Part shown: piece by piece, positions 1,856-60,042 of the stretch | How positions within the stretch are numbered: position 1 is the first letter of the stretch | Layout: every line of letters begins with the position of its first letter | Virus record (IMG/VR): IMGVR_UViG_3300046028_006424 | Span: 1-60,042 of that record | Length of the DNA stretch: 60,042 nt | Reading direction: 5' to 3' (one strand) | Source: a virus | Lineage: Duplodnaviria; Caudoviricetes | Notes under the pieces: model-generated | Seen by the model: only the letters and a program-made list of their open reading frames with translations | What the model was told of the DNA's origin: nothing | The model's database searches: none | Program-made: the position numbers and the translations under genes

Positions 1856-2709
1856 ACATCTACGAATGCAATCCGCGTGATTACCACGCCAAACTGAAAT
1901 GCAACCGGGCCAACGTTCTCGACCCTGACAGTTACTTGTCAAAATCGGTTCTTTGGGAACTGGATTCGTCCAGCCTTTGGAAGTGGCGCTACTACTACAC
2001 GAAGCCACGCGAAACCACCGCAGCGATGCGCTGGGGAAGTCTGATTGACTGCCTCACGACCACGCCAGAACTCGAAGGCTCTGACATCGCGCTTTCGCCC
2101 TATGACTCGTTTCGCACGAAGGATGCGCAGGCATGGAAGGCCATGCAGGAAGCGGAAAAGAAGATCATCGTCACCGCTGAGGATTTGGAAGAGGCGCGCA
2201 CCGCCGTGAAGATGCTCACAGAGACGTGCAAGGCGAGCGCCGACATCTTCGCCAAGTCCAAGTCACAGGTTATTGTGGCTGGCAACGTTCTTGGCGCGAA
2301 GGTCAAGGGACTCATTGACCTGGCCCCCGAGGGTGAAGACTTTCTGGCCGACTTGAAGACCGTGAGCACGTTCAGTCTCGAAGGCTTCGCAAAGGCAACA
2401 GCAAATTTCGGTTATCATGTTCAGGCCGGAATTTATCTCAATCTCTGGAACTCGCAGCATCCGAACGATCAACGCTCCCGATGGAAGTTCGTCTGGCAGG
2501 ATTCCGCCGCTCCTTATGAGGCGTGCGTGACCGAGCTTGCCCCGCAGGATATTGAGGCTGGATGGGCCTACGCTGTGACGCTGATTCAGCGTATCCTTGA
2601 CGCCACCGCCGCCGATTGCTGGCCGCTGGCATTCTCCGAGAAGGAGTCGATTACTACGCGCCCTACGTGGGCGGCAATGAACGAGGAATCCAAAATCACC
2701 ACCCCATGA
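1852..2709 (+). CDS. PD-(D/E)xK exonuclease, RecE/exonuclease VIII (DUF3799)-like
   Basis: T.AMRWGSLIDC, KGLID...LADLKT, FGYHVQAGIY motifs. Confidence 0.85.
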   Translation: MNIYECNPRDYHAKLKCNRANVLDPDSYLSKSVLWELDSSSLWKWRYYYTKPRETTAAMRWGSLIDCLTTTPELEGSDIALSPYDSFRTKDAQAWKAMQEAEKKIIVTAEDLEEARTAVKMLTETCKASADIFAKSKSQVIVAGNVLGAKVKGLIDLAPEGEDFLADLKTVSTFSLEGFAKATANFGYHVQAGIYLNLWNSQHPNDQRSRWKFVWQDSAAPYEACVTELAPQDIEAGWAYAVTLIQRILDATAADCWPLAFSEKESITTRPTWAAMNEESKITTP

Positions 2710-7519: not shown

Positions 7520-7732
7520 ATGAGCACAACACCCACTGCCATGAATGCCACCAAAACCGCTGCAATCTTCGGCTGTTCTCCGCAACAGGCAGAAGTGCAA
7601 ATGCGCAAGAACCTCGCTGGACTCCAATCCATGGAGGCGAAAGCGCGATCCACTGGCCGGAAGGTGAACGGCTACACCGCTGACGATCTCGCGGGCATGA
7701 TTGCCAAAGTGAAGAAAGGCTGGAACCTGTGA
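7520..7732 (+). CDS. Hypothetical protein
   Basis: AAGGAG upstream; stop overlaps the GTG of the MTase. Confidence 0.65.
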   Translation: MSTTPTAMNATKTAAIFGCSPQQAEVQMRKNLAGLQSMEAKARSTGRKVNGYTADDLAGMIAKVKKGWNL

Positions 7733-15672: not shown

Positions 15673-15768
15673 TTTTACCCATGAAACGTGCCGCCCGCGC
15701 TTTCCTCAAGAACCTCGCCATCCTGGCCGGAGTGAGAAATCGTGTGCCGTCTTCGTTCAACGCCTACC

Positions 15769-24700: not shown

Positions 24701-27700
24701 CAACGGGCAATCCATTTGAAACGCTGGTCCCTCGCGGCATTGGCGATGCGCTGCAATCCGCGCTCGCAGAAATCAAAGCCAACCGTGGCCCGATTGACCA
24801 GTACGTTGCCGACAGTCTCGATATGTCGGTTGCTGACCTGCAAAAAGCCATGGCTGCCGAGCAAATCGACGGCGTGGCGATGGCAATCTACCAGATGGAA
24901 ACGGGCGGGGCGCTTATCATCGGGGACGAAACCGGCATTGGCAAAGGCAGGCAGGCGGCATCGTTGATCCGGTTCGCCATCCTCAAGGGCAAGATTCCCG
25001 TGTTCTTCACCAAAGACCCGAAACTCTTCTCTGACATGTGGGGCGACCTGCGCGACATCGGTACGCAGATGTCAGAGCCAAATGCCTCGGCGTCAGATTT
25101 GTCTGTTCGCCCACTGGTGCTTGGCGATGCCGAGAAGGCGCAAATCAAGACGCCTGACAATGTGGTTGTACTGAAACCCGCTTCAAACGCTAAGCAGAGC
25201 AAAATCTTTGCCGCCGCCAAGGAAGAAGGATTCGCATCAACAGGCCACAACGCCATTTTTGCCACCTATTCCCAGATCCGCGACCCGAACGCCCGCCAGG
25301 AGTTCTTGGAGTGGCTGGCCGCGAATGACGATATCGTTGTCGTTCTCGATGAAGCTCACGAATCAGCAGGCGATGGAGAAACCTCCATGCAGGCTGCATT
25401 TATGATGGGCGGCACCATCAAACGCGGCAAAGGATCGGCCAAGACGGAGATTACCAAAAGCGGACTGTTGAACGGCCAAGGCGCCATGCACCCGCGTGGA
25501 GGTGTGTTGTACCTTTCCGCGACCTTTGCGAAGCGTCCCGACAACATGCCCGTGTATTACCGCACGGACCTGCGCCGAGGCGCTGATAACTTCAAGCAGG
25601 TGGTGGAAGCCATGACCAGGGGCGGCGTGGCGCTGCAACAGGCCATCACTGAGGCGCTGGCCGAGGCTGGTCAATACACCCGCCGCGAGCGTGACTTCAC
25701 CGGGGTAAGCTACTCCATGAAGCGTGTGGACGTGGGCGACGAAACGGAACTTGTCCGGCAGGTGGACGAAGTGACGAATGTTCTTTCTGAAATCTCTGCA
25801 TTCTCGAAGCGGATAAGTTCAATCGTTCAGGCTTCGACGGCGCAAAGCAATTCGCAAACGTCCATGACGGACTTTGCTTCCATCGTTCACAACCAAGTCG
25901 GGCAACTGCTGCTGGCCGCGAAGGCGGATGCGGTGGTCGATGAGGTGGTTGAAGCGCATAAGCGTGGTGAAAAGCCCATCGTGGCGCTGATGAACACCAT
26001 GGAGAGCTTTTTGCAGCAATACGTGGATGATTTGGACATCAAGCCCGGCCAACCGCTGAATTTGAACTGGTCAGCGCTGCTGGAATACGCACTATCAAGG
26101 ACGCTGCGAGCATCCGAGAAGCTGCCAAATGGCGACACGGAGATTTTCATCGTTGATCCCGCTGACTACAATTTGGCCGGAAGGTACAATGAAGTGCTGA
26201 AAGCCGCCCGTGCGGTATCGGTGGAGTTCCCAGTCAGCCCTATTGACTACATCATCCAGAAAGCCAAGGCAGGCGGTGTGAATGTGGGCGAACTCACGGG
26301 ACGCGAATCTGGCATCGACTACACCGATTTCAAGACCGGGGCGGGAACGTACCGCAAATTCAAGCGTGCGGACAAGAACACCCTCGTCAACACCTTCAAC
26401 AATGGCACTCTTGCGGGGCTGTTGCTGAATGCCAGCGGTTCCACAGGCTTGAGTATCCACGCCTCCGAGAAGTTCAAGGATCAGAAGCCACGGCACATGA
26501 TTATTGCCCAACCTGCGTTGGACATTAACGTGTTCATCCAGACTCTCGGGCGCATCAAACGCACGGGTATCGTGATGAATGGACGCTACCCAGGCGGGGA
26601 AGCCTACGGCGCTCGCTACTCGCATCTGACGTTGCCTCTCAACTCCGAAATGCGTCCCGCCATCATGGCGGCCCGCAAAATGAAGTCACTGAACGCCAAC
26701 ACCACGGGCGAAAGCGATTCGGCAGTGAAGATCGAGGCGGAAGACCTGATGAACCGGTTCGGCAATCAGGTGGTAGCCGAATACCTGTCCCGAATCCCTG
26801 AATTGCAGGGAGAACTCAACCTTGATGTCACGGAACGCGAAGACGGCACCGTGGAAGTGCCGCAGGACATCGCCCGCAAGTTCACTGGCAGGATGGCGCT
26901 GCAAACCAACGCCCGCCAGGGCGAAGCGTACGCGGAAATCATTGCAGACTACCGCCGCGCCGTGGAGCAAGCCAAGGTCACGGGAGACTATGACCTTGAA
27001 ATCATCATTCACGATGACTGGGACGCTACCAAGGCGAGCTCAGAGCAGATCGTTGCCGGTACCGACGAAAGCTCTATTTTCACATCCAGCGTGAACGTTC
27101 AGGGATGGGACATGACCGATACCCGGCCCACCCCATCCGGCGCTGACATGCTGGCGGAGTTCACCAAGGAAAACGGCAGCAATCAGCAGCTAGACACCCG
27201 CTGGCAGTCTTTTTCCCGCGAGGTGAACGAACGTCTCGACGGTCTGGAAAAGCGCACCCAAGCAAGACTGGGTGAGGCGCAGGCCACATTGGCAGGACTG
27301 GCCGAAGCAGATCCAGGGTACAAGGCTGCGGATCTTGCAGTTTCCATGCTTTTGCGCCAACAGGGCAACATTGCAGTCAAAAAGGCCCGCTGGCGCGACA
27401 CGCAGCGCCGCCTTGATGACATCATCGACGAAGCCGGGAAGCCCGTCATGCTGGAGAACGCCGAGACGAACGAGATGGATCACGGCATGATGACGCAGAT
27501 CAAGTTCCCCGACATCACGGGGCAACTGCGCATTGCTCCGAGTGCGTTCAAGATGACGTACCTTCTCAATCGCCCAGGTGGCCGCATCTACCCTTCGTTG
27601 GCAAGTTTCAAGGCGGACGGCTACACACAGGCCCGTTCTCAGTATTATCTGGAAGACATGACCGGCGACCGTGGAGGCCGCAGAGAGCGCCGCACCATCC

Positions 27701-30700
27701 TTGTCGGCAGCCCAATTCGTGCCTATGGCGCGACGGGCGGCAAGGGCAAGGTGGTTCGCTTCAAATCGCGTGACGGAGAACTCATCACGGGAATTATGAT
27801 GCCTCGTAGTTGGGGAATCTCAAATCTCGTCGAAGATCCACGCAAAGAACTGGCGGACGCAGCCGCCGTTGTTCGCTACATGCAGGAAAACCCGTATTCC
27901 GCTGGCTACGTGGAAAGCGGCGAGTCGGTGCGAATCCATCACAACTACGGAAGCTATCGGATCAGCGCCCCCTCGGCCCGCCGCACTGGTGGTGACATCT
28001 TCCTTGATGAAGAACTCCGCGACATCGTGGGAGACTTTAGCAAGAACGGCCAGCGCATGACTGCCGACCTCAACAGCAGCGATATTGAGCGTGCAGCCGC
28101 CCGCGTGGTGCAGATCACCGGTAAACGGTTCAAAGGCCAGGATTTGAACAAGGTACGGAAGGCAAACGGCACCGCAGAGGACAGCGCCGAATCCAAGACT
28201 GTCCGCCCAAAAAGCGCGCTCAAGGAAGCGGCAACGAAGGAATGGGACAAGCATATCGAAAAAGGCGGGTCACTCGGCCAGCCCCCCGCAGGCCGCGACG
28301 ACCCCAACAGCATCCGCAACGCGAAGCGCATCCGCTACCGTGGCCTGTTTAAGAACCAAGAATCAAGCAATGGCCGCGCAATCACCGAGAACCTGAACAA
28401 TCGCGCTCGCGCCGGCCAGATCATCCGCAGTTTCGAGCGCGATTGGGCACCGTTCTTCACCTACATCGACGACACGGCCCCCGAGGGTAAGCGCAAGGAG
28501 GCCCTGAAAAAGTTGGTGAACAAGTTCGCGATGTCTGACTCCCCTGAGAGCAAGTCGCTCTACAAGTGGTACTCGGAACTCCCCCTTGGCGAGCTTGTCC
28601 CCGAGGACACCGAGCGTGTGAAGGAAGCAAAAGAGCTGCTGCCGTATCTTGAGAATCTGACCATTTCCGCACCGACCGTAACGCACGTCATGCCCGATGG
28701 TGCGCAGTTGACCAGCGAAGGCGTGCAAACGCTCATGGCGAACCCTCGCGCCTACCACGGCACGCCCCACAAGGTGGACAAGTTCAGCATGGACAAGATC
28801 GGAACCGGAGAAGGCAATCAAGCTTATGGCTGGGGTCTGTACTTTGCTGAGTCCCGAATGGTGGGCATCGAATACAGGGACACCCTTGGAAACATGCGGC
28901 TGAAAATGCCCGATGGTGGCTATGTTGACGAGAAGCTGAGCACTTCAGGTGCAAAAAGAATCCTGCGCGAAGCGCGGTCCTACTGGATTGAAAAGAAAAC
29001 TCTGAAACAGTTCAGGAGTGATCTCGAAATGCAGCGAGATCGAGCACTGGTCTGGGCGAAACAAGGGAATTCAGCTGAAAGCAATCAGCAGTTCGCCGCT
29101 GATGCAGATGAGATTCTGAAACTTACGGATGATGCAGTTCTAGAAAGCACAGGGAACCTCTATACCGTCGATCTGTTGCCAGACGAGGAGGATTTTCTCG
29201 ACTGGGACAAGCCATTCCACGCACAAAGCCAGAAGGTTCAAGACGCCATCCGTGCATACTTGCCGACCAGCACGTCTATCCTCAAAAATCGTGACGATAT
29301 TGGCGAATTCGAAGGACAGCGCATCTACACATGGATCTCCAACAGCGGCGACAAAAAAGAGTGCAGCAAAGCCATGCTGGCAGCTGGCATTCCTGGCATT
29401 CGGTATCTTGATGGAAACAGCCGTTCGTTTGCTGGTTTCTGGGCTGAATCCAAACCCGATGAATTCGGCAGGTGGTGGGTCACGAACGGACGCGAAAGGG
29501 TATACACCAACTCGCAGAGCGATGCAGCGGCAGAGGTCAAGAAACGGAATTCGGATAACCGTGGCACCTACAACTATGTGCTCTTCGATGAAAGCCTTGT
29601 CCGCATCATCGCTGAAAACGGGAATCCTGTGGATGCCGCTCTGGGTGCGCCTCCTTCTTCCTACCGCTCCCCTGTCAGCATGCTCGAAGAAGCCGTTGGC
29701 AGACTCGGAGGCACCGCGCCAGCGAACAAGCCCGCCGGCCTCAGCAGCATGTTCAACCCAAAGGCGGGCCGTCCTGCCACCGGGGAGCGCACGCTGTTCG
29801 AGACGCCAAAGAATCCAGGGCCCGCATTCCAGACGAAAGACCTGCACGCCGCCTATCAGCGCGCCATCCGCAGCACCTCTACGATCTGGGCGAGCATCCG
29901 CAGCGTGTTCGATGAGGCGAAAAAGCTGAATCCATCCCTGAAAAAGGTCGATTTCATGGCCCAGTTGAAGGCGGCCTACTACTCGAATCTCGTTGGCATC
30001 GAGCCGTCCGAGCAATCGAGCACAGTCAATGCCGCCGGTGACTTCACCATGCGCGACTCTCTCGGCGTGGTTCACACAAACATGGTGTTCATGCCGACCA
30101 CCGAGGCCGAAATGATCGAAGCAGCGGAGCGCGACACAAGCTCGACTCCTGACCAGATCCTGAACGACTGGGCAAATTCTGAACTTTCGCAGCCGCCATC
30201 CCCTCCAATTGACCCGACCGTAGCCAACCAAGGCGACACCAGAGACAATCGGGAAGCGTTTGCGCGCATCCGAGGCTCTTACATTGCCGAGGAGATCACC
30301 CAGGCCAATTTCGACGAGATCCGCGAGAAAGTGCAAAGCCAGATAGACGAGGACGAAGAGGGGATGCTCGACAACATCCAATGGAAGGTTGCCAACGACG
30401 AGCAGCTGAGCCTTGAGGAGGAAATCGCCCGCCGAATGCTCGCCAACACCTTGCGCACCCGTGGTGTGCGGGAAAATGACCCTTCCCTTGTGGTGCTGGC
30501 AGATTCTCTGTGGGGCCAGGACATCCGCGACGCCACCGAGACCGCCCGCAAGCTCGCCGTGCGCGTCGACCAACTGCAATCACCGCAGGAACGCCTCGAT
30601 GCAGCCATGGGCCGCATCATCGCCCCAAACCGGGCAAAACTGCGCGAACGCCTCACGACTGCGTGGACGCCATCGGCCAAACGCCGGGAGATTGCACGCC

Positions 30701-33309
30701 TCGAAGGAGAGATTGCAAAGGCCGCGACAGCAGCCAGCCGAGCAAGCCTTGAAAGGACACTTGCGGAAGCCAAGGCCCGCATGGATCACAACGACCTCAT
30801 CGACAAGATGGCCGCTGAGAACAACGAGGCCGTGGACAAGATTTTGAAGCGTGTCGGCCTGACACAGGCAGACTTGACCATGACGCCCGATGACCGGCAC
30901 TCGCTGCAAACCGCCGTGCTGGACCTGCCGCCGGTGAAAAACGCCATGGTCACACTCTCCCCCGAGGTGCAAAAGGCCATCGAAATGAGCGTGCGCGGCT
31001 ACACGGACGCCGCAATCGCCCGTGACACTGGCCTGAAAACCGATGTTGTGGAGCGTGTCACCGAGCATTTCCGCAACGTGACTGCCAAGCAGGCCATTTC
31101 TCAGGCTGTCACCATCGGTAAGCAAACCCTCGGCGGATTCATCGAAGGCGGGAAGAACCTGATTCGCTGGATTCTTAAAGCGCCGCCCGCGCCGCTGCAA
31201 AACATGGTCAACATGGGGGTGAAGAACGCCGCCAACGTGCAGGCCCAGGTTCAGGCCATCTTAAACGCTGCCATTCCGACCCGCCGCAACCGCAACCGCC
31301 GCGCCCTGCATGCCGCCGTGGTGAACGGGAAGAAGGGCCAAAAGATCACCGTCTTTGTCCCCTACGACCCGACCGACTGGCAGCAGGTTTACCGTGTGGC
31401 CCGCGAACTCTCCACCCGTGACGCCACGGCGATGAACAAGGTGTACGAGTACTGGATCAACGGCATCCTGTCCGGCCCGCAGACGCATGTGGTCAACACC
31501 GCTTCAAATACCCTCTCGACGCTCTGGCACTACGGCCCGCAGTGGTTCGCCTCCGCGACCGTCAACACCATCATTCGCGACCCCAACTCGACGCAGTGGG
31601 GCGAGTTCCCGAAGGTGTGGGCAGGCTTTATGAAGGGCATTCAGCCCGCCATGGCAAACTTTGCGCTCGCATGGCGCACCGAGGCCGACCCCGTGGAGCA
31701 CACGTACCTCGACCGCCCGGTGACAGTTATGTTCAACGACGCCTCCCTTGAAAAAGCAGGTGGTGGCAAAGCCCCGTCCATTGGTGGCATTCCTGGCCGA
31801 ATCATTCGCTCGCCTGGCCGTTTCCTCGTCGCCATGGATGCGTTCGCCAAGACACTCATCATGCACGGTGAAGTGTCCGCCTACGCCTACCGACTTGGCA
31901 AACAGCGCGGCCTAGTCGGCGTGGCGCTCGAAAACTTCATGGCTTCGCAGATCGCGACCCATGGCTCTGAATCGTGGGAGCACTCCCTGCAAACGGCCAA
32001 GGAACTCACGTTCCAAGACGAGAATGACATTACGAAGGCCGTGGAGAAGGTCACGAATGCCGCCAAGCAGGCGAAGTACATCGGCCTCCTGTTCAAGTTC
32101 CTGCTCCCATTCGTCCGCACGCCGACCAACATCTACCGCACAGGCATGCGGAAAGCGGGCGGAAGCGCCGGTTTGCTGCTCTACCGTCTCGGCAAGGCCG
32201 GGTTCTATAAGATCCACAAGGGCGAAAACTTCTTCGACACCTATTCGAAGGGTAAGATGGTACAGGACGTGTCTGAATCGGTCATGGCTGGCGCTCTTTG
32301 GATGCTGGCTATGTCACTGTCCGAAGGCGACCCCGAGGACGAAAAGAAGGCGTTTGAGATCACTGGCGCACGCCCCTACGGCGTGGCAAATGCCGGGGAA
32401 CGTGCCAGCCAGCTACGGCAGGAGGGCGGTTCAAACCTCATCATCATTCGCAAGAACCCTGTCACGGGCGAGAAACTGGCCGATCCGATCCGCATCCCAT
32501 ACGGGCGATACGAGCCGATGGCGCTGACCATTGGCACGCTGGTGGATGCCGCCCGCGAGTTCAAGGAGTGGTCACGGCTGCCCGGTGGCGAGCAGACCGC
32601 CGACAAGCTGGCAGGCACGATCATGCAGCACATCGTTGCCCAGGCGCAGGACAAGACGTTCCTGCAAGGCATCTCGTCCGTTGCCCAGTTGGCCGAAGAC
32701 TTGACGCAGAACCGGCTTTCCCTTGGCGATTCCGTGGCAAAGCAGTTTGTCAACGGTGTGGTGCCGAACCTCATCCGCCAGACGCTTCGCCAAGCGCGGC
32801 CTGAACTCATCGACTCCAAGAAACCGCTGGAGGTGCTTGGATCGAAAACACTCGGCGGTGCGTTGTCCGAAGGGCAAGCCAAGATCAACGAGGCAGGGAA
32901 ACCCGTCACTCGCCGCGGCGGACCGGTGGGCAATATTCTGTTCCCCGGTGCCACCGAGCCGAGTAAGGCGCTGTTTGATACCGCGTTGAAGGACTGGAAC
33001 GCCCGCCATCCCAGCGAGAAGTGGAACCCTGACCCCATCACGAAGGGCGACTGGTTCATCTATGACCCAGCCATGGGCAGCAAAAAGGGCAAGTTCCCGC
33101 TCAAAGATTCGCGCCAGATTTCCCTGTTCGAGAAGAACGTGGGCATCATGTTCGACAAGCTGGCCGCGCAAGCCTTGGCGAAAACCGGCTACCGTCCCGG
33201 CGTCAAAGTCACCCCCGACCAGATCGAAGCCATCAAAGACGCTCGAACTGCCGCTATCAAACGTGTTCGTTCTATGCCACCATCAGCCTTTACTGTGAAG
33301 ACCAAATGA
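15769..33309 (+). CDS. Giant (~5850 aa) polyvalent DarB-like virion-delivered protein
   Basis: ParB-like VIDGHHR (~20035-20250); zincin HEVIH (20662); sliding-clamp-like STDDSR..LVATDGR (~21610-22270); amino-MTase DATAGNG/NPPF (23656/23842); Strawberry-notch-type SF2 helicase GDETGIGKG/DEAH (~24920-26700); ART-like AYHG..GWGLYF..NYVLFD (~28750-29630); C-terminal LSGP.TH/PFVRTP region. Confidence 0.9.
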   Translation: MPDFSENRRRIRTPGVNSQQSQSPFISDTQVRMMNAQRGQSIMADKIARAGVPSSYTPRKSTSSRDTNGDGVISSGERVDHIKRPDGTLVPVAAATGDPYLVRPKGVDHYVSPRSGDRFKVDPASPTGLLSIGSARDEAMRKAAEKQAKEDAAASKIEAKAVTDADKATAKAAAEAKKLANAQATDKLIAEGRAYHLSRETGTPLPVQTDEEFAKAKQEKMAKLQQEAAAKPYKKRLDELQLELSNPDLPKVTDKDLSDADNERAAAETELMAQRGTDDLATPLTDDEVKAALADPLRKDAANKLLAAREKTAALPKHVAKRLALEKEAYETKKRILDPLKYAADLKAEAPMKSDDELKAHADEINNRIKARDADVRQEAARITQKDGQFSQQYALTKQKYDEALTGGDPNVIGTLGDSMRDLEQQMLQWQGSSQDQRAAVDAESEQIKHDASHLQILADEQKKRDAVRQDQYTAALDAALPSAGQKYKSVTEDAYKRREDLRAKYPDPFAPEAKAAFDALNKDFEEKATAITKEADAAARAKQQKQQELRGKAFDAAQAAKSEIAKQRAADPAAPHGLSDLLSISKWKKAFTMTHEERSAEDSAQMQKQKAIIVEQMKKAGLDPENPEHQTFMEDAEKMDWSNAIIASDEKGGWGGKMGAEHALKGITNMLASGKDDSTAEISRTLSDGTLMINPLLVQDDAGYKKAVEKADAKPEAKAAALKQLPELQIQQAAALLPALLDTPKATPGESYESFEKRRETDPEHGEWFKGLRDGEKVREYFKEQQNRGNLVNVIDYLGTQAMSGLLQAGTMVLGTAGIATGFIPKVGEAISQTAAEGSKIASSMTATTRQETGAGGALRTVGQIANMAPPLALVALSGGRTAPMLGLSGMQTAGSQYAQGYQEMRDKGATHAEAWKAQALPAVASGIVTAALTHAGGQKGIEALYSPAGRAAAKEAIKSYWTALPKAFVKEGGREFLFEELPDELISTIIAAKASGDDPAKAVHQLIDQLPEFGAAIMLLGGAGGVKEAMQENRTASQPPAEDLADAPTPSVLPETEAARTAAIQAWTPATVPNSVLNATKAAHGKDATPEQQTDMARTAAHALVEIAAGGDPRTMSPEVRRVLGIKINSKDGSIVPASANVMPLVESVADPKGNHQPVITDAARAWLAKEVPTAAEAIKSSYAERVEQIKNPPKPAKKPKVEKAQPANASQEMSATKLRKLAQQRQNELLWKRDGKAGGTDEIATSPRQLSAAEKAELESLDKHLAADDTEALAKQYGVKIKAPVDVTSPATTPTEPAASPTKATTPPSKPAESVNSGQSSPKLPRELASAKPRWKEYELEFESDIDRAAYIAAQEKPSKRDADYLAFAMKHAGLSEPAVRSHGAAVRAYIKANTGSAKNSKTGPTIAIPSQMEARKPAVEISPHLIETVPEDLARAQEDRTANNERWQRAEKSTDPIHVLQLPGGKYRVIDGHHRLIDRLAKGQPIMATMGKAKTPQKEEKPQPTEQEKAPRGTIEPVATAPEDRKDAAQGLAGGALLAAAEKQSQAVVSKMQGEEKQRAIIARDVILAVIRRYNGHLPIDLAKGDNGFSFSNEGKVLINPRKAIMDVVEATSSNAEAKTMAEKLFDHEVIHLFATSKIEPARIKAVWNDLPQDVKNAVIKAYSIRLVASGQPAVDLNDFAGGHEYFRAMIEATRTGVLSEQAIGPKLAEKWKQIVLDFLAILKDLKKQFASIKSEAKRTELTARVEAIRKEISDALDQFERSIAPQESNNPGKEPALATSTGAVSTTETSSESPVKGSTETVAAADGVTSITNAKESSVKSEKQEAIRAGIPVKEVTTPAAIKEKNPADAKALREMKRYLLEKIDDAIATAGDPSQPKVVIEIPGDGTFTLHNNKKTLQEFAKKAKSFPTSTPAATVPKLTEIRPSGIPVLNKGKVTTATLVKVAGAFASTDDSRQSIMQVADFGDTLVATDGRMMFTAPIPGEGTEEDPVLYSANGARLGPQSKNEKFGKYPGWQVAIPQDAEVIYRGLDTGRLWQILKQASAVYRDTNWKVVNGKGQTENQTPYVQIFINPDNTIGVRGEADNRTQDGGGYVSNIDVYEHNMQPGAQIVGRFDADLFMSALAAFRAIGQEKVSIKSTDDKTQGAMILSSRAADVIIMRVKGLSPSEKAAPSPAETKSPAISPPEIKDDAPSLKSEEPAAPKDAIDSALDEAFGGLYAPPTGKGTPLDLSEAISAVEAFYADPSEPTNWPEDLQEDFEKAPLSQAVESTDFVAFYEALPENKRTKEFTQWYEEAKANETVQKRLDGFYSTLKKNPQAAFTADEWAALQASPNEARRDIETQKQVTERAIQQLTIPERKIYDDDLENLNEFWESDKPQEMAMAGFLPQVKERVQSTIQQIEALGRHKWDKTMQAFDELDEPQVLFQNPGPVEQVALPKDRRDAMMKAAGALVDLGLKTPQELAARLDKLAPNGALRQYARSFWRLMTGFDAELDENPDWQAIYAPKVEAPATAEPDAIRDLILSDDSRAKKAQAMKKLSQERGETIKETQEFVESRLVQIADEVARNGEPAKDRFDELVSIYDKQPLFSARTSTSMENQAYSTPAPMAFVLGHMTGVTPQTSVYDATAGNGMLEIGANLENSVANEIDETRRTGLQQLGVGTITNKDATSPVGAFKDRAKAQVVHLNPPFGGIPNTNFDGFGIRKLEHIISLHALKEGMADNGTAAIILGATMHNQEQSKGAQWVFENYLYGNYHVIDNFEVSGDLYGNQGAKWPVRILVIAGRRAVPLTKQDLAPKTVDRLETWDDVWTRAERTRHEVERQRQILGTDGQSSVPAGTPTGNEGTQKPGSVSSGQPSNAPTPASGGKRGGNSGGKSSSSTTGNGSSGLDASGTSEQSADAGTADQSDASGRKPTSGVEGGRGSSTKSPSNAGNGSPTDRGNADAGGADQSNDRGVKRKKAEATATQVPYDPASTGNPFETLVPRGIGDALQSALAEIKANRGPIDQYVADSLDMSVADLQKAMAAEQIDGVAMAIYQMETGGALIIGDETGIGKGRQAASLIRFAILKGKIPVFFTKDPKLFSDMWGDLRDIGTQMSEPNASASDLSVRPLVLGDAEKAQIKTPDNVVVLKPASNAKQSKIFAAAKEEGFASTGHNAIFATYSQIRDPNARQEFLEWLAANDDIVVVLDEAHESAGDGETSMQAAFMMGGTIKRGKGSAKTEITKSGLLNGQGAMHPRGGVLYLSATFAKRPDNMPVYYRTDLRRGADNFKQVVEAMTRGGVALQQAITEALAEAGQYTRRERDFTGVSYSMKRVDVGDETELVRQVDEVTNVLSEISAFSKRISSIVQASTAQSNSQTSMTDFASIVHNQVGQLLLAAKADAVVDEVVEAHKRGEKPIVALMNTMESFLQQYVDDLDIKPGQPLNLNWSALLEYALSRTLRASEKLPNGDTEIFIVDPADYNLAGRYNEVLKAARAVSVEFPVSPIDYIIQKAKAGGVNVGELTGRESGIDYTDFKTGAGTYRKFKRADKNTLVNTFNNGTLAGLLLNASGSTGLSIHASEKFKDQKPRHMIIAQPALDINVFIQTLGRIKRTGIVMNGRYPGGEAYGARYSHLTLPLNSEMRPAIMAARKMKSLNANTTGESDSAVKIEAEDLMNRFGNQVVAEYLSRIPELQGELNLDVTEREDGTVEVPQDIARKFTGRMALQTNARQGEAYAEIIADYRRAVEQAKVTGDYDLEIIIHDDWDATKASSEQIVAGTDESSIFTSSVNVQGWDMTDTRPTPSGADMLAEFTKENGSNQQLDTRWQSFSREVNERLDGLEKRTQARLGEAQATLAGLAEADPGYKAADLAVSMLLRQQGNIAVKKARWRDTQRRLDDIIDEAGKPVMLENAETNEMDHGMMTQIKFPDITGQLRIAPSAFKMTYLLNRPGGRIYPSLASFKADGYTQARSQYYLEDMTGDRGGRRERRTILVGSPIRAYGATGGKGKVVRFKSRDGELITGIMMPRSWGISNLVEDPRKELADAAAVVRYMQENPYSAGYVESGESVRIHHNYGSYRISAPSARRTGGDIFLDEELRDIVGDFSKNGQRMTADLNSSDIERAAARVVQITGKRFKGQDLNKVRKANGTAEDSAESKTVRPKSALKEAATKEWDKHIEKGGSLGQPPAGRDDPNSIRNAKRIRYRGLFKNQESSNGRAITENLNNRARAGQIIRSFERDWAPFFTYIDDTAPEGKRKEALKKLVNKFAMSDSPESKSLYKWYSELPLGELVPEDTERVKEAKELLPYLENLTISAPTVTHVMPDGAQLTSEGVQTLMANPRAYHGTPHKVDKFSMDKIGTGEGNQAYGWGLYFAESRMVGIEYRDTLGNMRLKMPDGGYVDEKLSTSGAKRILREARSYWIEKKTLKQFRSDLEMQRDRALVWAKQGNSAESNQQFAADADEILKLTDDAVLESTGNLYTVDLLPDEEDFLDWDKPFHAQSQKVQDAIRAYLPTSTSILKNRDDIGEFEGQRIYTWISNSGDKKECSKAMLAAGIPGIRYLDGNSRSFAGFWAESKPDEFGRWWVTNGRERVYTNSQSDAAAEVKKRNSDNRGTYNYVLFDESLVRIIAENGNPVDAALGAPPSSYRSPVSMLEEAVGRLGGTAPANKPAGLSSMFNPKAGRPATGERTLFETPKNPGPAFQTKDLHAAYQRAIRSTSTIWASIRSVFDEAKKLNPSLKKVDFMAQLKAAYYSNLVGIEPSEQSSTVNAAGDFTMRDSLGVVHTNMVFMPTTEAEMIEAAERDTSSTPDQILNDWANSELSQPPSPPIDPTVANQGDTRDNREAFARIRGSYIAEEITQANFDEIREKVQSQIDEDEEGMLDNIQWKVANDEQLSLEEEIARRMLANTLRTRGVRENDPSLVVLADSLWGQDIRDATETARKLAVRVDQLQSPQERLDAAMGRIIAPNRAKLRERLTTAWTPSAKRREIARLEGEIAKAATAASRASLERTLAEAKARMDHNDLIDKMAAENNEAVDKILKRVGLTQADLTMTPDDRHSLQTAVLDLPPVKNAMVTLSPEVQKAIEMSVRGYTDAAIARDTGLKTDVVERVTEHFRNVTAKQAISQAVTIGKQTLGGFIEGGKNLIRWILKAPPAPLQNMVNMGVKNAANVQAQVQAILNAAIPTRRNRNRRALHAAVVNGKKGQKITVFVPYDPTDWQQVYRVARELSTRDATAMNKVYEYWINGILSGPQTHVVNTASNTLSTLWHYGPQWFASATVNTIIRDPNSTQWGEFPKVWAGFMKGIQPAMANFALAWRTEADPVEHTYLDRPVTVMFNDASLEKAGGGKAPSIGGIPGRIIRSPGRFLVAMDAFAKTLIMHGEVSAYAYRLGKQRGLVGVALENFMASQIATHGSESWEHSLQTAKELTFQDENDITKAVEKVTNAAKQAKYIGLLFKFLLPFVRTPTNIYRTGMRKAGGSAGLLLYRLGKAGFYKIHKGENFFDTYSKGKMVQDVSESVMAGALWMLAMSLSEGDPEDEKKAFEITGARPYGVANAGERASQLRQEGGSNLIIIRKNPVTGEKLADPIRIPYGRYEPMALTIGTLVDAAREFKEWSRLPGGEQTADKLAGTIMQHIVAQAQDKTFLQGISSVAQLAEDLTQNRLSLGDSVAKQFVNGVVPNLIRQTLRQARPELIDSKKPLEVLGSKTLGGALSEGQAKINEAGKPVTRRGGPVGNILFPGATEPSKALFDTALKDWNARHPSEKWNPDPITKGDWFIYDPAMGSKKGKFPLKDSRQISLFEKNVGIMFDKLAAQALAKTGYRPGVKVTPDQIEAIKDARTAAIKRVRSMPPSAFTVKTK
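24233..24649 (+). CDS. Candidate overprinted 138-aa helical protein in the +1 frame inside the giant gene
   Basis: L/E/Q-rich amphipathic sequence exactly where the main frame is a G/S/T/N low-complexity linker; alternative start 24269. Confidence 0.6.
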   Translation: MKLNANDRFSAPMDNPRYLLVLPQGTKEPKNRDQYLAANLQMLQRLQAEASEEEIQEANQVLRQLETEVLDWMPQELLSNPQTLELLTSLTPVDGSPLQEWKAGEEAALKAPRMLETEARQIAETLTLAGRISQMIEA

Positions 33310-51559: not shown

Positions 51560-52165
51560 TTATTTCAAAAGTTTTGACCATCTGGCCTTGGCTGATGAGT
51601 CAGGGATAGATCCGTTTTTGTTTGAGCGATAAAGGCGAGTTGTCCCGACCCTGTTTTTGCTGCGGTCACGTACGCGAGGCTTGGAGGTGTATTCAATAGC
51701 CCATCCTGACGCTTTGTAGATCGTTCCTGTGTGAACATCAAGGTCTTGGTAGCTGATGCACTTCTCACGTTCGGGACATTCTTTTTGGAAGAAGCGGAAC
51801 ATCCATGCAATCATCCGGCTTGGGGTGTTTTTCGGAGAATCAGGGGAGCATGCCATGCGTCGAAGCTCCAACCAATGATGCGGCAGACTTCGAGTGCATG
51901 GGTTGTTCCAAAGAGCGACCGCATAAGTCACCCCATCTTTTTGAGCACGAAACGCATACTGCCAAGGGCCAGCCTGACACCCAGGCAAACGCGAATGCCA
52001 CAACTCAACCATGCTTACAGCGTGGGATTTCTCACATAGTTCAAACGTCAATTCTCTGGCATGGAGCGCGATGGTCGGAATTGAACCGCCATTTTCCAAT
52101 TGGAATAGAGGATGTGTTACCCTTACACTAATCGCGCATTTTTCGCCGTTGAAATCTTGGGCCAT
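51560..52165 (-). CDS. Mom-like GNAT-fold DNA adenine-modification enzyme
   Basis: WHSRLP, LELRRMAC..DSPKNTPSRMI, ISYQD..VHTGTIYKASGW. Confidence 0.8.
   Translation of the reverse strand: MAQDFNGEKCAISVRVTHPLFQLENGGSIPTIALHARELTFELCEKSHAVSMVELWHSRLPGCQAGPWQYAFRAQKDGVTYAVALWNNPCTRSLPHHWLELRRMACSPDSPKNTPSRMIAWMFRFFQKECPEREKCISYQDLDVHTGTIYKASGWAIEYTSKPRVRDRSKNRVGTTRLYRSNKNGSIPDSSAKARWSKLLK
52062..52137 (-). ncRNA. tRNA-Gly(UCC)-like element, non-canonical, inside the Mom-like coding sequence
   Basis: 76 nt; perfect 7-bp acceptor stem, U73, CCA; D-arm GTGT/ACAC; TCC at 34-36; T-loop TTCAATT; weak anticodon stem and bulged T-stem. Confidence 0.75.
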
Positions 52166-52195
52166 GTCGCTAACTACGCCGCACAACCCGCCAAG

Positions 52196-54544
52196 TCAAC
52201 GGTTTTTCATCCGTCCCGGCGTATTCTCGCGCCCGCCTTCAACGCGATGCCCGCCCGACTCCTGCTGAATCGCGGCGCGGAACAGCGTCGCGTGGTCATG
52301 GCAGAGCGTCGCCAACGCAGCCCCCCGCACAAGATCAATCGGTACGCCGTCGCGCCATTCGGGCAGGCCAGCGGTGGAGTTCTGTATCTCTTGGCACTGG
52401 ACGACCAGCGAAGGGCAAGCCAGCACGATTTTACCCGTCCTGATTCGGCCTTGCAGGGTGATGAGCGCGTGTTGCGCCACATCGGCGTTCCATTCCCAGC
52501 CTTCGTGCATCGTGGCTTCTTCCTGCCCAAGGGGGCGCTTCCCGGCGACCTGCTGCCGCGCCATGAGGAACGATCCCAGCTTGCGCAATTCCTGAACGCC
52601 GCCTGGGTGTGACACGACATCGACGGCGATAGGGGCGAGGCCGTAGAATGCCGATACCTGCGCAGCCCAGCGGTAGAAAAGGGAATGGTCGGGCTGCTGA
52701 ATCCATGGGGGGGCAGCCTGCAACGCCATCGGGCCGTCTGGACCGTCTGACTGCCAGACCTGCAACGAGCGCCCGATGAGCGTCACAAGGTAGCGCCTGC
52801 CCTGCCGCGGGCCGTTCCAGACTCGGAGCCAGCCGCCCGTGTCAGGAGCGTCTGTGACGTGCCGCACGGGCCTCCCTGCCCCATCGGAGCAGTTCAGGGT
52901 TACGGTGCGCGGAGGGTTGGCCGCTGCGTCGCTGCTGGCTACCGCGAGCGTGCCGGGGTCAAAGAATGGGCGAGTGGCCACGGCGTTACCGGTGCCTGGC
53001 AGGAATCCCAGCAAATCGGCCTCCCCGATGTAGCGGGCGCTGTCCGCTTCGTGACTCGTCCAATCTTTCACGACTTCATCTAGAAACCGGTTTTCGTCCT
53101 TCGGATCTGGCCGGCGTCGATATGCTTCCGCCGCTTTGATGAAGTCGGTGCATCCCCGATCAATCAGGAAGGTGTTGAACATGCTCGTCATGTGGTTCAC
53201 CCCCGGCCAAATGCTCGTTGCACGGGTGATGACCTCCAAGCGCCCGCTGCATCCCTGCTTCGCGAGTTCTTCACGGAATGCCTTCTCGAACGTCACCCCT
53301 GTTCGAGCCGTCTGCGCCCCGTCATGGGGGATGAAGTGCGTCCGGTACTTGTAGCCGCGCAGGATTAGCCCGCGCACAAGGTCGGGAAGCTCAGACCATC
53401 CGCCCGACTGGCTGGCGATGAGGTGCCGGTAGCCGCCCCGGTGCTGCACGAACTTGATCGACGTGTTATCAGGCGCTCCAAGATCCCAAAACGAATCAAC
53501 TTCGAGTTCGGGATCATGGGGAACGTTGGTGATTCGCCCCTCGTTTCGAGCCTTCGCGATGGCCTCGGCCCAAATGACTCCTTTGACGGGCGCCTCCCAG
53601 CATTCATCGAGGAAAGTTGGGTTTTCCCGCTTCATATAGATGCCCTGGGTACGGTTTTCCTGCGCCCACCAGCGTTTTTGCCCCTCGGAGAGAGTGACGC
53701 CAAACTCATGCTTGAGGCGAACGTCTGCCTTCAGGAAGTACTGGAACGAGTCGGCATCAAGCTCGGCATTCGACACGTTGCGCGGATCTTTCCACCACGG
53801 GCAGAAGCTCACATCCCAGTCGTGTGACCGCTTCTCCATGGTCGGTTCGATAATGTCCCACAACTTGCCGCCGCGTCCGCCCTTCCAAGTAGTTTCCACA
53901 AATTTGACGCCCCATCGAGCGGAGGGGAACGCCCCTGACACGATTTCATCCGCACGGGGTGAATCATCAAACTGGATGACGCCAAGCTCTGAGGCCCAAA
54001 GGAAATCGCAGGAACCGCCTCGGCCACGGGTGCCAGCGTAGAAGGTGGAAGCGCCGCCGTCGTGTGTGAACACGGTCAACTCGCTGTCATTCGACTTCCC
54101 CACCTGCAACGGCCAGACCAGCATGAGCGAGTCCAGGGCCACTTTCACGATGTCGTTCATCTTCCGCGTGGCATCCGTGGCAATTTGGTCAATCAGCGCG
54201 GCGGTGAAGTTGCGGCGGAAGCCAAGGCAGTCGGCAACAAACACGCCGATGGTGGTGGAGAAGCCGAGTCGGCGGGCCTTGAGCTTCACCCGCTGCACGA
54301 CATCCAGCCGCATTTGTGCCAGCGCCGCCTCTTCGCCCTGTTCGTGGAGGATCTTGGCATTTTGCTTTGATGCCTCCACGGCGTTTAAAAGCTCTTTCAG
54401 CAATTCGACCTGTTCAGGCCGTGGCATAAACGGCACGATGCCACGACCGTCCGCTGTTTTGATCTTGTAGATCATGCCCGACGTGAGACGCCAGACGGAA
54501 TCTGATAGGTTTGCTTCGAGGATGGCGATGTCTTCGGCTGTCAT
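52196..54544 (-). CDS. terL: Terminase large subunit with a long C-terminal extension
   Basis: LKARRLGFST, LWASE, VETT, FWDLGAPDNT, PHDG, SHEADSARY. Confidence 0.92.
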   Translation of the reverse strand: MTAEDIAILEANLSDSVWRLTSGMIYKIKTADGRGIVPFMPRPEQVELLKELLNAVEASKQNAKILHEQGEEAALAQMRLDVVQRVKLKARRLGFSTTIGVFVADCLGFRRNFTAALIDQIATDATRKMNDIVKVALDSLMLVWPLQVGKSNDSELTVFTHDGGASTFYAGTRGRGGSCDFLWASELGVIQFDDSPRADEIVSGAFPSARWGVKFVETTWKGGRGGKLWDIIEPTMEKRSHDWDVSFCPWWKDPRNVSNAELDADSFQYFLKADVRLKHEFGVTLSEGQKRWWAQENRTQGIYMKRENPTFLDECWEAPVKGVIWAEAIAKARNEGRITNVPHDPELEVDSFWDLGAPDNTSIKFVQHRGGYRHLIASQSGGWSELPDLVRGLILRGYKYRTHFIPHDGAQTARTGVTFEKAFREELAKQGCSGRLEVITRATSIWPGVNHMTSMFNTFLIDRGCTDFIKAAEAYRRRPDPKDENRFLDEVVKDWTSHEADSARYIGEADLLGFLPGTGNAVATRPFFDPGTLAVASSDAAANPPRTVTLNCSDGAGRPVRHVTDAPDTGGWLRVWNGPRQGRRYLVTLIGRSLQVWQSDGPDGPMALQAAPPWIQQPDHSLFYRWAAQVSAFYGLAPIAVDVVSHPGGVQELRKLGSFLMARQQVAGKRPLGQEEATMHEGWEWNADVAQHALITLQGRIRTGKIVLACPSLVVQCQEIQNSTAGLPEWRDGVPIDLVRGAALATLCHDHATLFRAAIQQESGGHRVEGGRENTPGRMKNR

Positions 54545-55386
54545 CGTGTGTCAGATAGAGTTGCCATTCCAAGCAGCATCATAAGGGCAGCGGGCATTTT
54601 TGTGCCTGCTTTGATGCCGACAAGCTCAGACGGTGGTTGTGGAAACTCACCAGTGAAACGCCTTTTCTTATTCGCCGCGCCGATTTTAGCTTTATGTTCA
54701 GGAGTTAGACGGCGTTTCTGCATAGCTTTCCCAATGGCTAAACGATGCGACATGCTATGCTTTTTGCCGATCTTTGCCAACCTCATGCGTTCTCTAGTCT
54801 CGGCGGAAAACACCCTGCCTTTGAGGGCGTTGGAAATGCGCAACTTCCACTCGGGGTTAAAAATCCTTCCCTTCATAGCTTTAGATATTTTTTCTTTCGC
54901 CTCTTGCGTTAAATGACTGCCTAGAAGCTTATTTGAAATCTTCAAACAGGTTTCGGCGCTTCGCTTCTTTCCTGTGTTTGCCTTCGCAAATGCAGCTTTT
55001 GCATTCGGGTGCATCGGCCTTCCTGTTTTTTTCCCGCGCCTAGACTTACTCCATGCAGCTTTGGTTTATTCTGAGTGCCTGTATCCAGAAACACCCTCGC
55101 CGCCAGATGTTGTATTCACAAGATCATGACCGCTATTACGGAATGCAATGATGGTTTCGCATTCCTCTTTGTTTCCATTTCCATCCACCTCGGCAAAGAG
55201 CGTTATTACAGGGCTGTGGCCTTCTTCTAGCATAGACCTAATCCAGTTATCGCGGTGATGCTTATGAGACCCTTTTTTTGCAGCACATAGGTGCTGCATT
55301 AATCTCAATCTAAGAGGTCGAATGGTCTTTCCTATATAGCGAGGCTGGCCCGTAAAATCACAGAGAGAATAAATCTTGGTTTTCAT
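54541..55386 (-). pseudogene. GIY-YIG/NUMOD3 homing endonuclease with an in-frame ochre stop at 55066-55068
   Basis: KIYSL..RYIGKT..RLMQH..NTTSGGEG; HSE*TK; the same frame continues through NUMOD3-like repeats. Confidence 0.85.
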
Positions 55387-59258: not shown

Positions 59259-60042
59259 ATGACCACCACCGACACACCCACCGCTGAAAACACCGCTATT
59301 GCAATCGTCGTCCCTGAAAAGGACCAACTGCCACCGTCCCTCCTGACCAACATTGAAACCGGCTTCAAATCCGCATTCGAGCAAGCGGAGAAGTGGCGCG
59401 TCCAGGCTCTCGCCATCCAAGTTACCAGCCTTGACCAAAAAGCCGAAATGAAGCTGGCCCGCACGATCCGGCTCGAGCTGAAGGCCGTTCGCGTCAACGC
59501 CGACAAGGCGCGCAAGGCTCTCAAAGCTGACGCGCTCCTGATGGGCCGCGCAATTGACGGCGTGTACAATCTGCTTGAAGCGGCAATTGTCCCCATGGAG
59601 CGCCATCTGGACGAACAGGAGAAGTTTGCAGAGCGTCTGGCTGAAGCTGAACGCCTGCGACTCAAGGCTGAGCGCGAATCCGCTCTTTCGCCTTTCCTCG
59701 ATATGACCATAACGATGGCGATTCCTGATTTGTCATCCATGACCGCCGAACAATGGGAGTGCTACCTTGCCGATGCCAAATTGCTGCACAACGCCAAGAT
59801 TGAGCAGGCACAACGCGCCGAAGCTGAACGCATCGCCGCAGAGCAGGCCGCAGCCGCAGAACGTGAGCGCCAGCGCATTGAACTTGAACGCCTGCGCAAG
59901 GAGGCCGTAGAACGTGAAGCAGCCGCGAAAGCCGAGCGCGAGGCCGCAGAGAAAGCGCAGCGTGAAGCAGCAGCAAAGGCCAAGGCTGAACGCGACGCAC
60001 TTGAAGCAGCCGCGAAAGCCGAGCGCGAGGCCGCAGAGAAAG
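59259..60042 (+). CDS. N-terminal part of the coiled-coil phage protein continuing at 1..522
   Basis: ATG 59259, open to the window end; ARTIRLELKAVRV..KARKALKAD..GRAIDG. Confidence 0.85.
   Translation, partial: MTTTDTPTAENTAIAIVVPEKDQLPPSLLTNIETGFKSAFEQAEKWRVQALAIQVTSLDQKAEMKLARTIRLELKAVRVNADKARKALKADALLMGRAIDGVYNLLEAAIVPMERHLDEQEKFAERLAEAERLRLKAERESALSPFLDMTITMAIPDLSSMTAEQWECYLADAKLLHNAKIEQAQRAEAERIAAEQAAAAERERQRIELERLRKEAVEREAAAKAEREAAEKAQREAAAKAKAERDALEAAAKAEREAAEK
59916..60042. repeat. Terminal direct repeat identical to 1-127
   Basis: Exact match. Confidence 0.85.

Follow-up and report, generated by a model that had tools for sequence, protein, structure and literature searches.

A tRNA-Gly(UCC)-like element of 76 nt was located at 52062..52137, on the minus strand of IMG/VR record IMGVR_UViG_3300046028_006424, within the coding sequence of a Mom-family DNA modification gene. 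The record is a complete virus genome of 60 kb in the direct terminal repeats class; it was analysed over its full length of 60,042 nt and is referred to here as the window. Its first ~40 bases (1-40) recur at the record end (60003-60042, GAAGCAGCCGCGAAAGCC...), which fits the class.

The Mom open reading frame (ORF), at 51560-52186 on the minus strand, matches Pfam Mom (PF25680, E 1.9e-12, 47.7 bits, cut-off 27.1) and PHROG 1384, 'Mom-like DNA modification protein'. Its longest form opens at TTG 52186 and has 208 aa, of which residues 17-42 are encoded by the element. Read from ATG 52165, which is residue M8 of the longest form and sits 28 nt upstream of the first element base, G1, it gives the Mom-family (GNAT) ORF 51560..52165. 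The element bases are translated as CAISVRVTHPLFQLENGGSIPTIALH within this frame. By profile the window protein matches the Mom structure PDB 8bv8; its R110 and S123 align with the catalytic R111 and S124 of Mu Mom, and its ELRRM and PSR with ELNRM and ESR of Mu. In the alignment of Mom-like protein relatives R110 is invariant and S123 at least 90% conserved.

Element position p corresponds to window coordinate 52138-p, and all arms were read on the minus strand. The 5' acceptor strand (positions 1-7, GCGCGAU, 52131..52137) pairs over all seven bases with 52066-52072, the pairs being, by direct reading, G1-C72, C2-G71, G3-C70, C4-G69, G5-C68, A6-U67 and U7-A66. The D arm (positions 10-24, 52114..52128) has a 4-bp stem, GUGU/ACAC, and a 7-nt loop, AAGGGUA, and U8, A14 and the D-loop GGG are present. 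In the anticodon arm (positions 26-43, 52095..52112) three of the five stem pairs form (U26-A43, C27-G42, C28-G41), U29/U40 and C30/U39 are unpaired, and the loop is UAUUCCAA; by plain count from base 1 it holds U33, the anticodon U34-C35-C36 (52104-52102) and A37. The anticodon stem reads UUGGA in the window against GAGGA in relatives, and the two mismatches create a 12-nt palindrome, TTCCAATTGGAA, at positions 33-44 (52094-52105). The T arm (positions 48-65, 52073..52090) consists of GGCGG, the loop UUCAAUU and CCG-A-CC, with the bulged A63 at 52075. It is followed, at 52062..52072, by the acceptor 3' strand (66-72), U73 (52065) and an encoded CCA (52064-52062), again read directly. The copy therefore has the features of a tRNA cloverleaf (7-bp acceptor stem, D, anticodon and T arms, U8, A14, G18/G19, TPsiC-type loop); with its 3/5 anticodon stem pairs and interrupted 5-bp T-stem it departs from a canonical elongator tRNA. 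Pairs 6-67 and 7-66 are A-U and U-A in the window against G-C and A-U in the family; since both are compensated, selection on the fold persisted in the window lineage.

The element was detected with ARAGORN, the Rfam tRNA model and R1, a family covariance model built from relatives. ARAGORN called it as the sole tRNA of the window, at exactly 52062-52137, in a shifted register and with the label Trp-cca. This label was rejected as a register artefact, because the calls on relatives are Gly-tcc or carry a 'tc' anticodon, and Gly(UCC) is the identity of the family consensus as well as of the closest cellular tRNAs. Rfam tRNA (RF00005) gave 27.2 bits (E 0.0035), short of the gathering threshold of 29. 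R1 gave 86.8 bits (E 6.8e-17), and 52062-52137 (minus strand) is its only match in the whole virus record. The fold energy is -22.3 kcal/mol (z -2.59), and none of 200 shuffles folded as well; in a 179-nt mRNA context the acceptor and T arms are retained with an overall z of -0.20, from which no claim of start-codon occlusion was drawn. A preliminary description of this DNA, made from its letters, had read 52137..52062 of the minus strand as a tRNA-Gly(UCC) translated inside a Mom-like ORF from ATG 52165. That reading proved exact in all listed bases and pairs, the translation and the PF25680 match bear out its coding context, and the Gly(UCC) identity agrees with the ARAGORN calls and with the family.

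An element family joined to Mom genes

Relatives of the window protein were collected by protein search (620 at E <=0.001 among 646 candidates). Many of them align through the tRNA-encoded residues, with the consensus xxRVxxPLFxxxxGGSxPTxAL, and 79 IMG/VR loci were taken from 351 confirmed relatives; the nearest relatives by protein (P0001, P0002 and others, 78-83% identity) entered the comparison as proteins only. ARAGORN called a same-strand tRNA bordering the Mom match on its 5' side at 27 of the 79 loci (6 Gly(tcc), 1 Gly(acc) and 20 '???' with a two-base 'tc' anticodon). R1, which is based on alignment A2 of 46 distinct 76-nt copies with zero gaps, placed the element at the 5' end of Mom in 64/79 loci from IMG/VR (63 at 56-97 bits and the weak match L034 at 24.6 bits), at 18/33 loci in metagenome-assembled genomes (MAGs) from many phyla and at 4/8 closer metagenome loci. 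Where element length varies, it does so in steps of three bases, or with +1 and -1 changes in the D and anticodon loops offsetting each other (L042, L032, L008, L118).

A pattern that did not require Mom (UUCC, an 11-nt spacer, the bulged T arm and the acceptor 3' strand) was also searched from the RNA side. It matched 100 IMG/VR stretches, and 79 new loci were evaluated. A Mom-like ORF follows directly downstream in the same frame in 71 of them and in another frame in two; two are cut by the contig end, two have a truncated Mom ORF (L180, L215), and two are exceptional (L218, L221). All representatives of a second sequence class, 'HYLG', match Pfam Mom (10/10, E 1e-20 to 1e-40, domain from ~residue 27). 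Throughout these sequences the element is almost always joined to a Mom-family gene.

Three loci depart from the usual architecture. At L206 (4320-4395, minus strand) the element is followed by a stop, an SD-like (Shine-Dalgarno-like) motif AAGAGGA and a separate ATG opening the Mom-like ORF; going by its sequence, this is a free-standing version of the same tRNA. At L218 the element (1885-1960) forms the 3' end of a 243-aa Mom-like ORF (1869-2600, minus strand) in the same codon phase. ARAGORN calls both of these elements Gly-tcc. At L221 (8056-8131, minus strand) only the 3' half is present (anticodon arm, bulged T arm, acceptor 3' strand and UCCA), with no matching 5' half and no Mom-like gene within 10.8 kb, and this half-element may be a recombination or attachment-site remnant.

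When a tree of the Mom domain is rooted at its midpoint, both halves contain the element (55/58 and 11/29 rows). Relatives that lack it show either a clean deletion of the N-terminal extension or decayed copies. Among cultured phages, none of 50,697 phage records was matched by blastn with the window region or with two elements. With the window protein, tblastn matched 70 cultured-phage records, all beginning at query residue 32 or later; with the L151 protein it matched 278 records, and among the matches listed (25) the starts fell at residues 22-30, with one at residue 8. Run without filters on seven cultured-phage loci, R1 gave no element at the 5' end of mom in any of them (Mu, ICP1, EniLVp02, phiKp_21, CRP-902, BC-6 and Lupine).

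As an observation apart, contig C20 of MAG G002 carries two identical copies of the element and its Mom-like gene (elements at 9298-9373 and 60065-60140, ~50 kb apart; loci L091/L094 and L129/L131), which suggests a duplicated prophage or an assembly repeat.

Glycine identity was counted over 106 unique elements. GCG stands at positions 1-3 in 101 and CGC at positions 70-72 in 104; U73 is found in 99, an encoded CCA in 87 and UUCC at positions 33-36 in 104. The T-stem bulge is an A in 105. The anticodon loop has 8 nt in 87 elements and 7 nt, canonical with UCC, in the remaining 19. The bacterial determinants for glycyl-tRNA synthetase (GlyRS) listed in Table 1 of Giege and Eriani (2023, PMC9976931) are G1-C72, C2-G71, G3-C70, U73, C35 and C36. 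All are present in the window copy, which is therefore a predicted GlyRS substrate. In these respects the preliminary description stood up well: the determinants it had named match that table, U73-CCA and the CC at 35-36 are conserved across the family, and the bulged A63 it had noted in one copy is a family-wide trait. As a side observation, the other seven of the 106 elements (L072, L075, L078 and others) have A73, which the same table gives as the archaeal and eukaryal tRNA-Gly state; these variants might track the type of host GlyRS.

In five MAG genomes the next R1 matches after the elements are the cellular tRNA-Gly(UCC) genes (57.8 and 54.7 bits), with Gly(CCC) and Gly(GCC) ranking below. 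Compared with cellular tRNA-Gly genes, the elements have one extra base in the T-stem 3' strand. Ten of 20 representative relatives pass the Rfam tRNA threshold (29.8-36.1 bits), against 51.8 bits for a normal tRNA-Met in L046. By sequence, the element descends from tRNA-Gly(UCC).

Selection on the RNA and translation through it

In the 46 aligned sequences the bulged cloverleaf pairs in 91.2% of 966 cells, against 78.2% in column shuffles, of which 0/500 reached the observed value; when the pair partners were slid, only 37-49% paired. Pairing reaches 99.4% in the acceptor stem, 100% in the T-stem on either side of the bulge and ~80% in the D and anticodon helices. Changes on both sides were seen in 16/21 pairs, with covariation in all four helices, including 3/4 pairs of the D helix. 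In one subgroup the register moves by a single base, so that the D loop has 8 nt and the anticodon loop the canonical 7 (UU-UCC-GA). The acceptor and D stems and the T-stem with its bulge were also recovered independently by RNAalifold. In a phylogeny for which only the Mom domain was used, changes between paired states number at least 12 for pair 4-69 and at least 18 for pair 5-68.

Synonymous sites were assessed in 68 unique coding sequences, the expectation being taken from codon use in the remainder of the same genes. C35, C2 and G71 were each observed in 68/68 at synonymous sites (27.6, 30.8 and 20.3 expected, respectively), T53 in 64/68 (14.5 expected) and C74 in 55/68 (14.0 expected). 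Phe is mostly TTT elsewhere in these genes (163 vs 113) and never TTT within the element. At codon 36-38 any triplet beginning with C is accepted (Q, R, P or H), yet C36 is present in 68/68; at this codon and at codon 75-77 the amino acids vary and the bases stay. Together these sequence comparisons show that, in over 100 phage lineages, purifying and compensatory selection acts on the element as RNA. The preliminary description had proposed covariation and a cloverleaf shared by homologues as the signs of a functional RNA, and a one-off decayed tRNA or attachment-site remnant as the opposite outcome. Covariation is positive by shuffles, partner sliding, RNAalifold and the Mom-domain tree, R1 finds the cloverleaf throughout the family, and the occurrence at more than 100 distinct loci excludes a one-off.

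Translation was surveyed in 74 distinct contexts. The Mom frame is stop-free across the element in 73/74 (the exception being L034), and the other two frames contain stops in 66/74 and 58/74. The nearest in-frame start, usually ATG, lies 4-16 nt before G1 in 72/74 contexts, most commonly 10 nt, and has an SD-like motif in 39/74 against 24% of control positions. No conserved restart was found downstream of the element in these contexts: just 2/74 have an ATG in frame there that is accompanied by an SD-like motif, and its place is not fixed. Third codon positions are the most variable (entropy 0.97 vs 0.53 and 0.69). It follows from these sequences that the element is predicted to be transcribed together with the Mom-family gene and that the ribosome usually reads through it from a start a few codons upstream. 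The possibility that the ORF over the tRNA is a gene-caller artefact was rejected on the open frame, the start position and the scarcity of restarts.

The encoded N-terminal peptide appears dispensable and is predicted to be disordered. AlphaFold gives a pLDDT (predicted local distance difference test) below 50 for residues 1-37, and the fold begins near residues 41-47; the Pfam and PHROG Mom profiles start after the element. The peptide is absent in L122, L123 and L097, of which the sister loci L122 and L123 open directly at the Mom domain, and in L206 it is not translated with Mom. All this makes the peptide look unimportant.

A proposed glycyl donor and other readings

Judged by its sequence and distribution, the element is a real, ancient, Mom-linked and non-canonical tRNA-Gly(UCC) gene, lying in frame in the 5' coding end of Mom. 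Mu Mom takes glycine from Gly-tRNA(Gly) and joins it to adenine N6 in double-stranded DNA; it accepts all three E. coli tRNA-Gly isoacceptors, rejects Gly-tRNA(Ala) and requires R111 and S124 (main text of Silva et al., Nat Commun 2026, PMC13219725; preprint bioRxiv 10.1101/2023.03.24.534169). Use of Gly-tRNA(Gly) by Mom, mentioned in the preliminary description, is thus in print. That description had offered either a dedicated donor escaping EF-Tu or a regulatory tRNA mimic, and its interpretation is supported in so far as all the computational checks it proposed gave positive outcomes. The genes studied here resemble Mu mom in their family (PF25680) and in the conserved equivalents of R111 and S124; they differ in that Mu scavenges any host isoacceptor and its mom has no R1 match at the 5' end.

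We consider the chances about even that the element, once cut from the mom RNA, acts outside the ribosome as a glycyl donor dedicated to Mom, with or without a regulatory side effect. The mom transcript would work first as mRNA. The cloverleaf would then fold, RNase P would cut at G1 and 3' exonucleases would trim the RNA to the encoded CCA, such excision being required because charging needs a free CCA end. The 76-nt tRNA would thereby be released and that mRNA copy destroyed, since the start codon lies 4-16 nt upstream of G1. Host GlyRS would charge the released RNA, because the identity set (G1-C72, C2-G71, G3-C70, U73, C35, C36) is intact. The bulged T-stem and 8-nt anticodon loop would keep it from elongation factor Tu (EF-Tu) and the ribosome, and it would so become a private glycyl donor for the Mom-like transferase, which would glycylate N6 of adenine in phage DNA. 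The fold begins 4-16 nt behind the start codon, a position which suggests that it also limits mom translation; initiation on the mRNA of an enzyme that may be toxic would then be held back by the fold itself.

More tentatively, and with a probability somewhat short of even, the gene may be bifunctional: one transcript would be the mRNA of the transferase and would later be matured into the enzyme's orthogonal glycine carrier, the fold limiting the toxic enzyme. Enzyme and donor would then come from the same bases in a fixed ratio, and the carrier would be charged by GlyRS and ignored by EF-Tu and the ribosome.

Several points weigh against a donor role. The element was lost at least several times: the Mom-domain tree requires at least 8 gains or losses, and 21/87 rows lack it. 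Because the RNA-side pattern was derived from Mom-linked copies, it samples the relatives of those copies. That the T-stem bulge lowers EF-Tu affinity is our own inference. The position of the start codon 4-16 nt upstream of G1 in 72/74 contexts would be left unexplained if the element were a donor only. Mu Mom uses all three host isoacceptors, so that a private tRNA is not chemically required. Lastly, the window copy, a somewhat unusual one for the family, has a weakened anticodon stem (3/5) and an unusually long spacer of 28 nt, and may be less effective than its relatives.

The alternative that survives best is a tRNA mimic acting only in cis, which would control mom mRNA and never serve as glycyl donor; it could work by blocking initiation, by letting RNase P cut off the start codon, or through feedback when Mom or GlyRS binds. 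The close start codon, with its SD-like motif, puts the 5' acceptor strand within reach of the initiating ribosome, a conserved downstream restart is missing, and translation of Mu mom is, by annotation, controlled through Com. Against this, L206 and L218 retain the element where initiation cannot be gated, which favours a trans-acting product over a pure initiation switch. C35 and C36 are needed by GlyRS and are invariant at synonymous or amino-acid-changing sites, whereas neither RNase P nor a binder of the acceptor end should depend on them, and the encoded CCA and U73 are kept. A role in cis alone is on balance unlikely, although it keeps an appreciable share of the probability.

A second alternative is an ordinary translational phage tRNA-Gly(UCC) that overlaps the mom ORF by chance and aids decoding of GGA and GGG. 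Phages often carry tRNAs, the minority of elements with a canonical 7-nt loop and UCC would suit this role, as would the Gly-tcc calls by ARAGORN (6/79 IMG/VR loci, L206 and L218), and half of the representatives exceed the Rfam threshold. It is nevertheless improbable in view of the near-constant T-stem bulge, the prevalent 8-nt anticodon loop, Rfam scores far below that of the tRNA-Met in L046, and the near-exclusive association with a single enzyme family, for which Gly-tRNA is a co-substrate; in addition, the element is the sole tRNA that ARAGORN finds in the 60-kb genome. Nothing in the sequences points to a decoding role.

The conserved feature could also be the N-terminal peptide itself (RVxxPLFQ...GGSxPTSxL), with the tRNA likeness a relic of its origin. 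The frame is indeed open where the other two are stopped, third codon positions vary most, and decayed copies retain RVxxPL-like residues. We regard this as very improbable, as Watson-Crick covariation spans distant codons, synonymous sites are frozen, amino acids vary at codons 36-38 and 75-77 while the bases stay, and the peptide is predicted to be disordered and is missing from the Mom proteins of several loci.

Least probable of all, hardly to be entertained, is a decayed host tRNA, an attachment-site remnant or a chance match, for which the sub-threshold Rfam score and weak anticodon stem of the window copy and the half-element L221 could be cited, against a full-length cloverleaf whose place is the same in over 100 distinct loci and lineage-specific compensated pairs (6-67, 7-66) in the window. 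An attachment-site remnant was rejected for the window in particular, which is a complete record with terminal repeats and has a full-length tRNA; such a site would hold the 3' part alone, beside an integrase. The peptide and relic readings jointly retain at most a very small probability.

The glycyl donor reading has a working analogy in Staphylococcus aureus, where non-proteogenic tRNA-Gly escape EF-Tu and feed the Fem transferases FmhB, FemA and FemB (Rietmeyer et al. 2021, PMC7826273). As described in the text of that article, they have normal GlyRS identity, altered D/T regions and poor binding to EF-Tu and the ribosome, and serve an aminoacyl-tRNA-dependent transferase; they are free-standing cellular genes of a lineage said there to be confined to staphylococci. 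The element differs in being phage-borne and inside the transferase ORF, and in its T-stem bulge and mostly 8-nt loop, two traits that hint at weak EF-Tu binding and preferred use by the transferase.

No earlier description of a tRNA inside Mom genes was found in the literature, the supplements of Silva et al., which possibly show homologue N-termini, lying outside the material covered. The main text of PMC13219725, supplements likewise apart, never mentions 'tRNA-like', 'phage-encoded tRNA', 'ARAGORN' or 'tRNAscan', and the covered text of the 2023 preprint contains neither 'tRNA gene' nor 'EF-Tu'.

Related RNAs, significance and other features of the window

Ordinary phage tRNA genes are likewise phage-carried cloverleaves, often with an encoded CCA. 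They are free-standing and canonical, and serve in decoding or in replacing depleted host tRNAs; the element, in contrast, is in frame in a coding sequence, non-canonical and tied to one enzyme family. The aminoacylatable tRNA-like structures of plant RNA viruses, mascRNA and tmRNA are tRNA-shaped modules in longer RNAs, recognised by RNase P, the CCA enzyme or aminoacyl-tRNA synthetases; they either occupy the 3' end of an RNA or are assembled from its two ends, often with pseudoknots. Unlike these, the element is a plain four-arm cloverleaf with a 7-bp acceptor stem and is ORF-internal, and it does not have the terminal CCA of a viral 3' tRNA-like structure, as it starts 28 nt into an ORF of ~600 nt.

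The operator of E. coli thrS is an anticodon-arm mimic in the 5' untranslated region near the start site, which imitates the tRNA substrate of the encoded enzyme. The likeness, a start-proximal mRNA mimic of the encoded enzyme's tRNA, fits a regulatory role in cis; the element differs from it in being a whole tRNA with CCA in the coding part, which in some relatives is placed beyond initiation gating. Frameshift-suppressor tRNAs, such as the sufD tRNA-Gly, have 8-nt anticodon loops and are rare mutant decoders. The element shares the extra anticodon-loop base with sufD, but here it is the majority state of a natural family and is accompanied by a T-stem bulge.

With the use of Gly-tRNA(Gly) by Mom recently established, the donor reading addresses how a phage shares that pool with translation. 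If it is true, a covarying tRNA-Gly variant in the enzyme's own frame would be a natural answer to pool sharing, and the element would be a rare sequence selected both as protein code and as functional tRNA. The element also suggests, as independent genomic support, that the wider Mom family is glycyl-tRNA dependent. Its scaffold, with T-stem bulge and 8-nt loop, may be naturally insulated from translation, so that it is a candidate for an orthogonal tRNA. For the antiphage toxSAS FaRel2, recognition of tRNA-Gly and tRNA-Thr through the acceptor stem and blocking of their CCA ends have been reported (PMC11245113), and a phage-borne variant tRNA-Gly might be relevant to escape from defences of this type. 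For annotation the element is a trap: gene callers cut Mom ORFs at the tRNA or miss the tRNA, as in the window, where the database protein P0003 (163 aa) is called from a TTG immediately after the element.

Upstream of the window Mom ORF lies a terminase-large-subunit-like gene (52196..54544, minus strand), the stop of which is 30 nt before ATG 52165; it matches PHROG 2, terminase large subunit (E 5.6e-08), and PHROG 2472 (E 2.9e-27), with no Pfam match. Directly upstream of it, a 157-aa ORF (54541-55014, minus strand) matches the homing-endonuclease PHROGs 314 and 655. No integrase family was found among the 20 different window ORFs scanned, the remaining window ORFs lying outside that scan. 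A 598-aa ORF (7729-9525, plus strand) has a short C-5 cytosine DNA methylase match (PF00145, E 1.5e-08, residues 73-118) and may represent a second DNA-modification function of the window phage.

At one related locus, L074, the Rfam Betaproteobacteria-1 RNA (RF02932, 90.7 bits) was detected at 1721-1839 (plus strand), ~1.1 kb upstream of the Mom-like gene. In the window, a single ORF of 5,855 aa (15742-33309, plus strand) takes up 29% of the genome. There is no Pfam match in its first 3,000 aa; its second half matches Pfam AAA_34 (E 3.8e-23) and Helicase_C_4 (E 7e-12), both Strawberry-notch-like, and weakly, below the cut-off, ART-PolyVal. The product looks like a giant 'polyvalent' virion or anti-defence protein.

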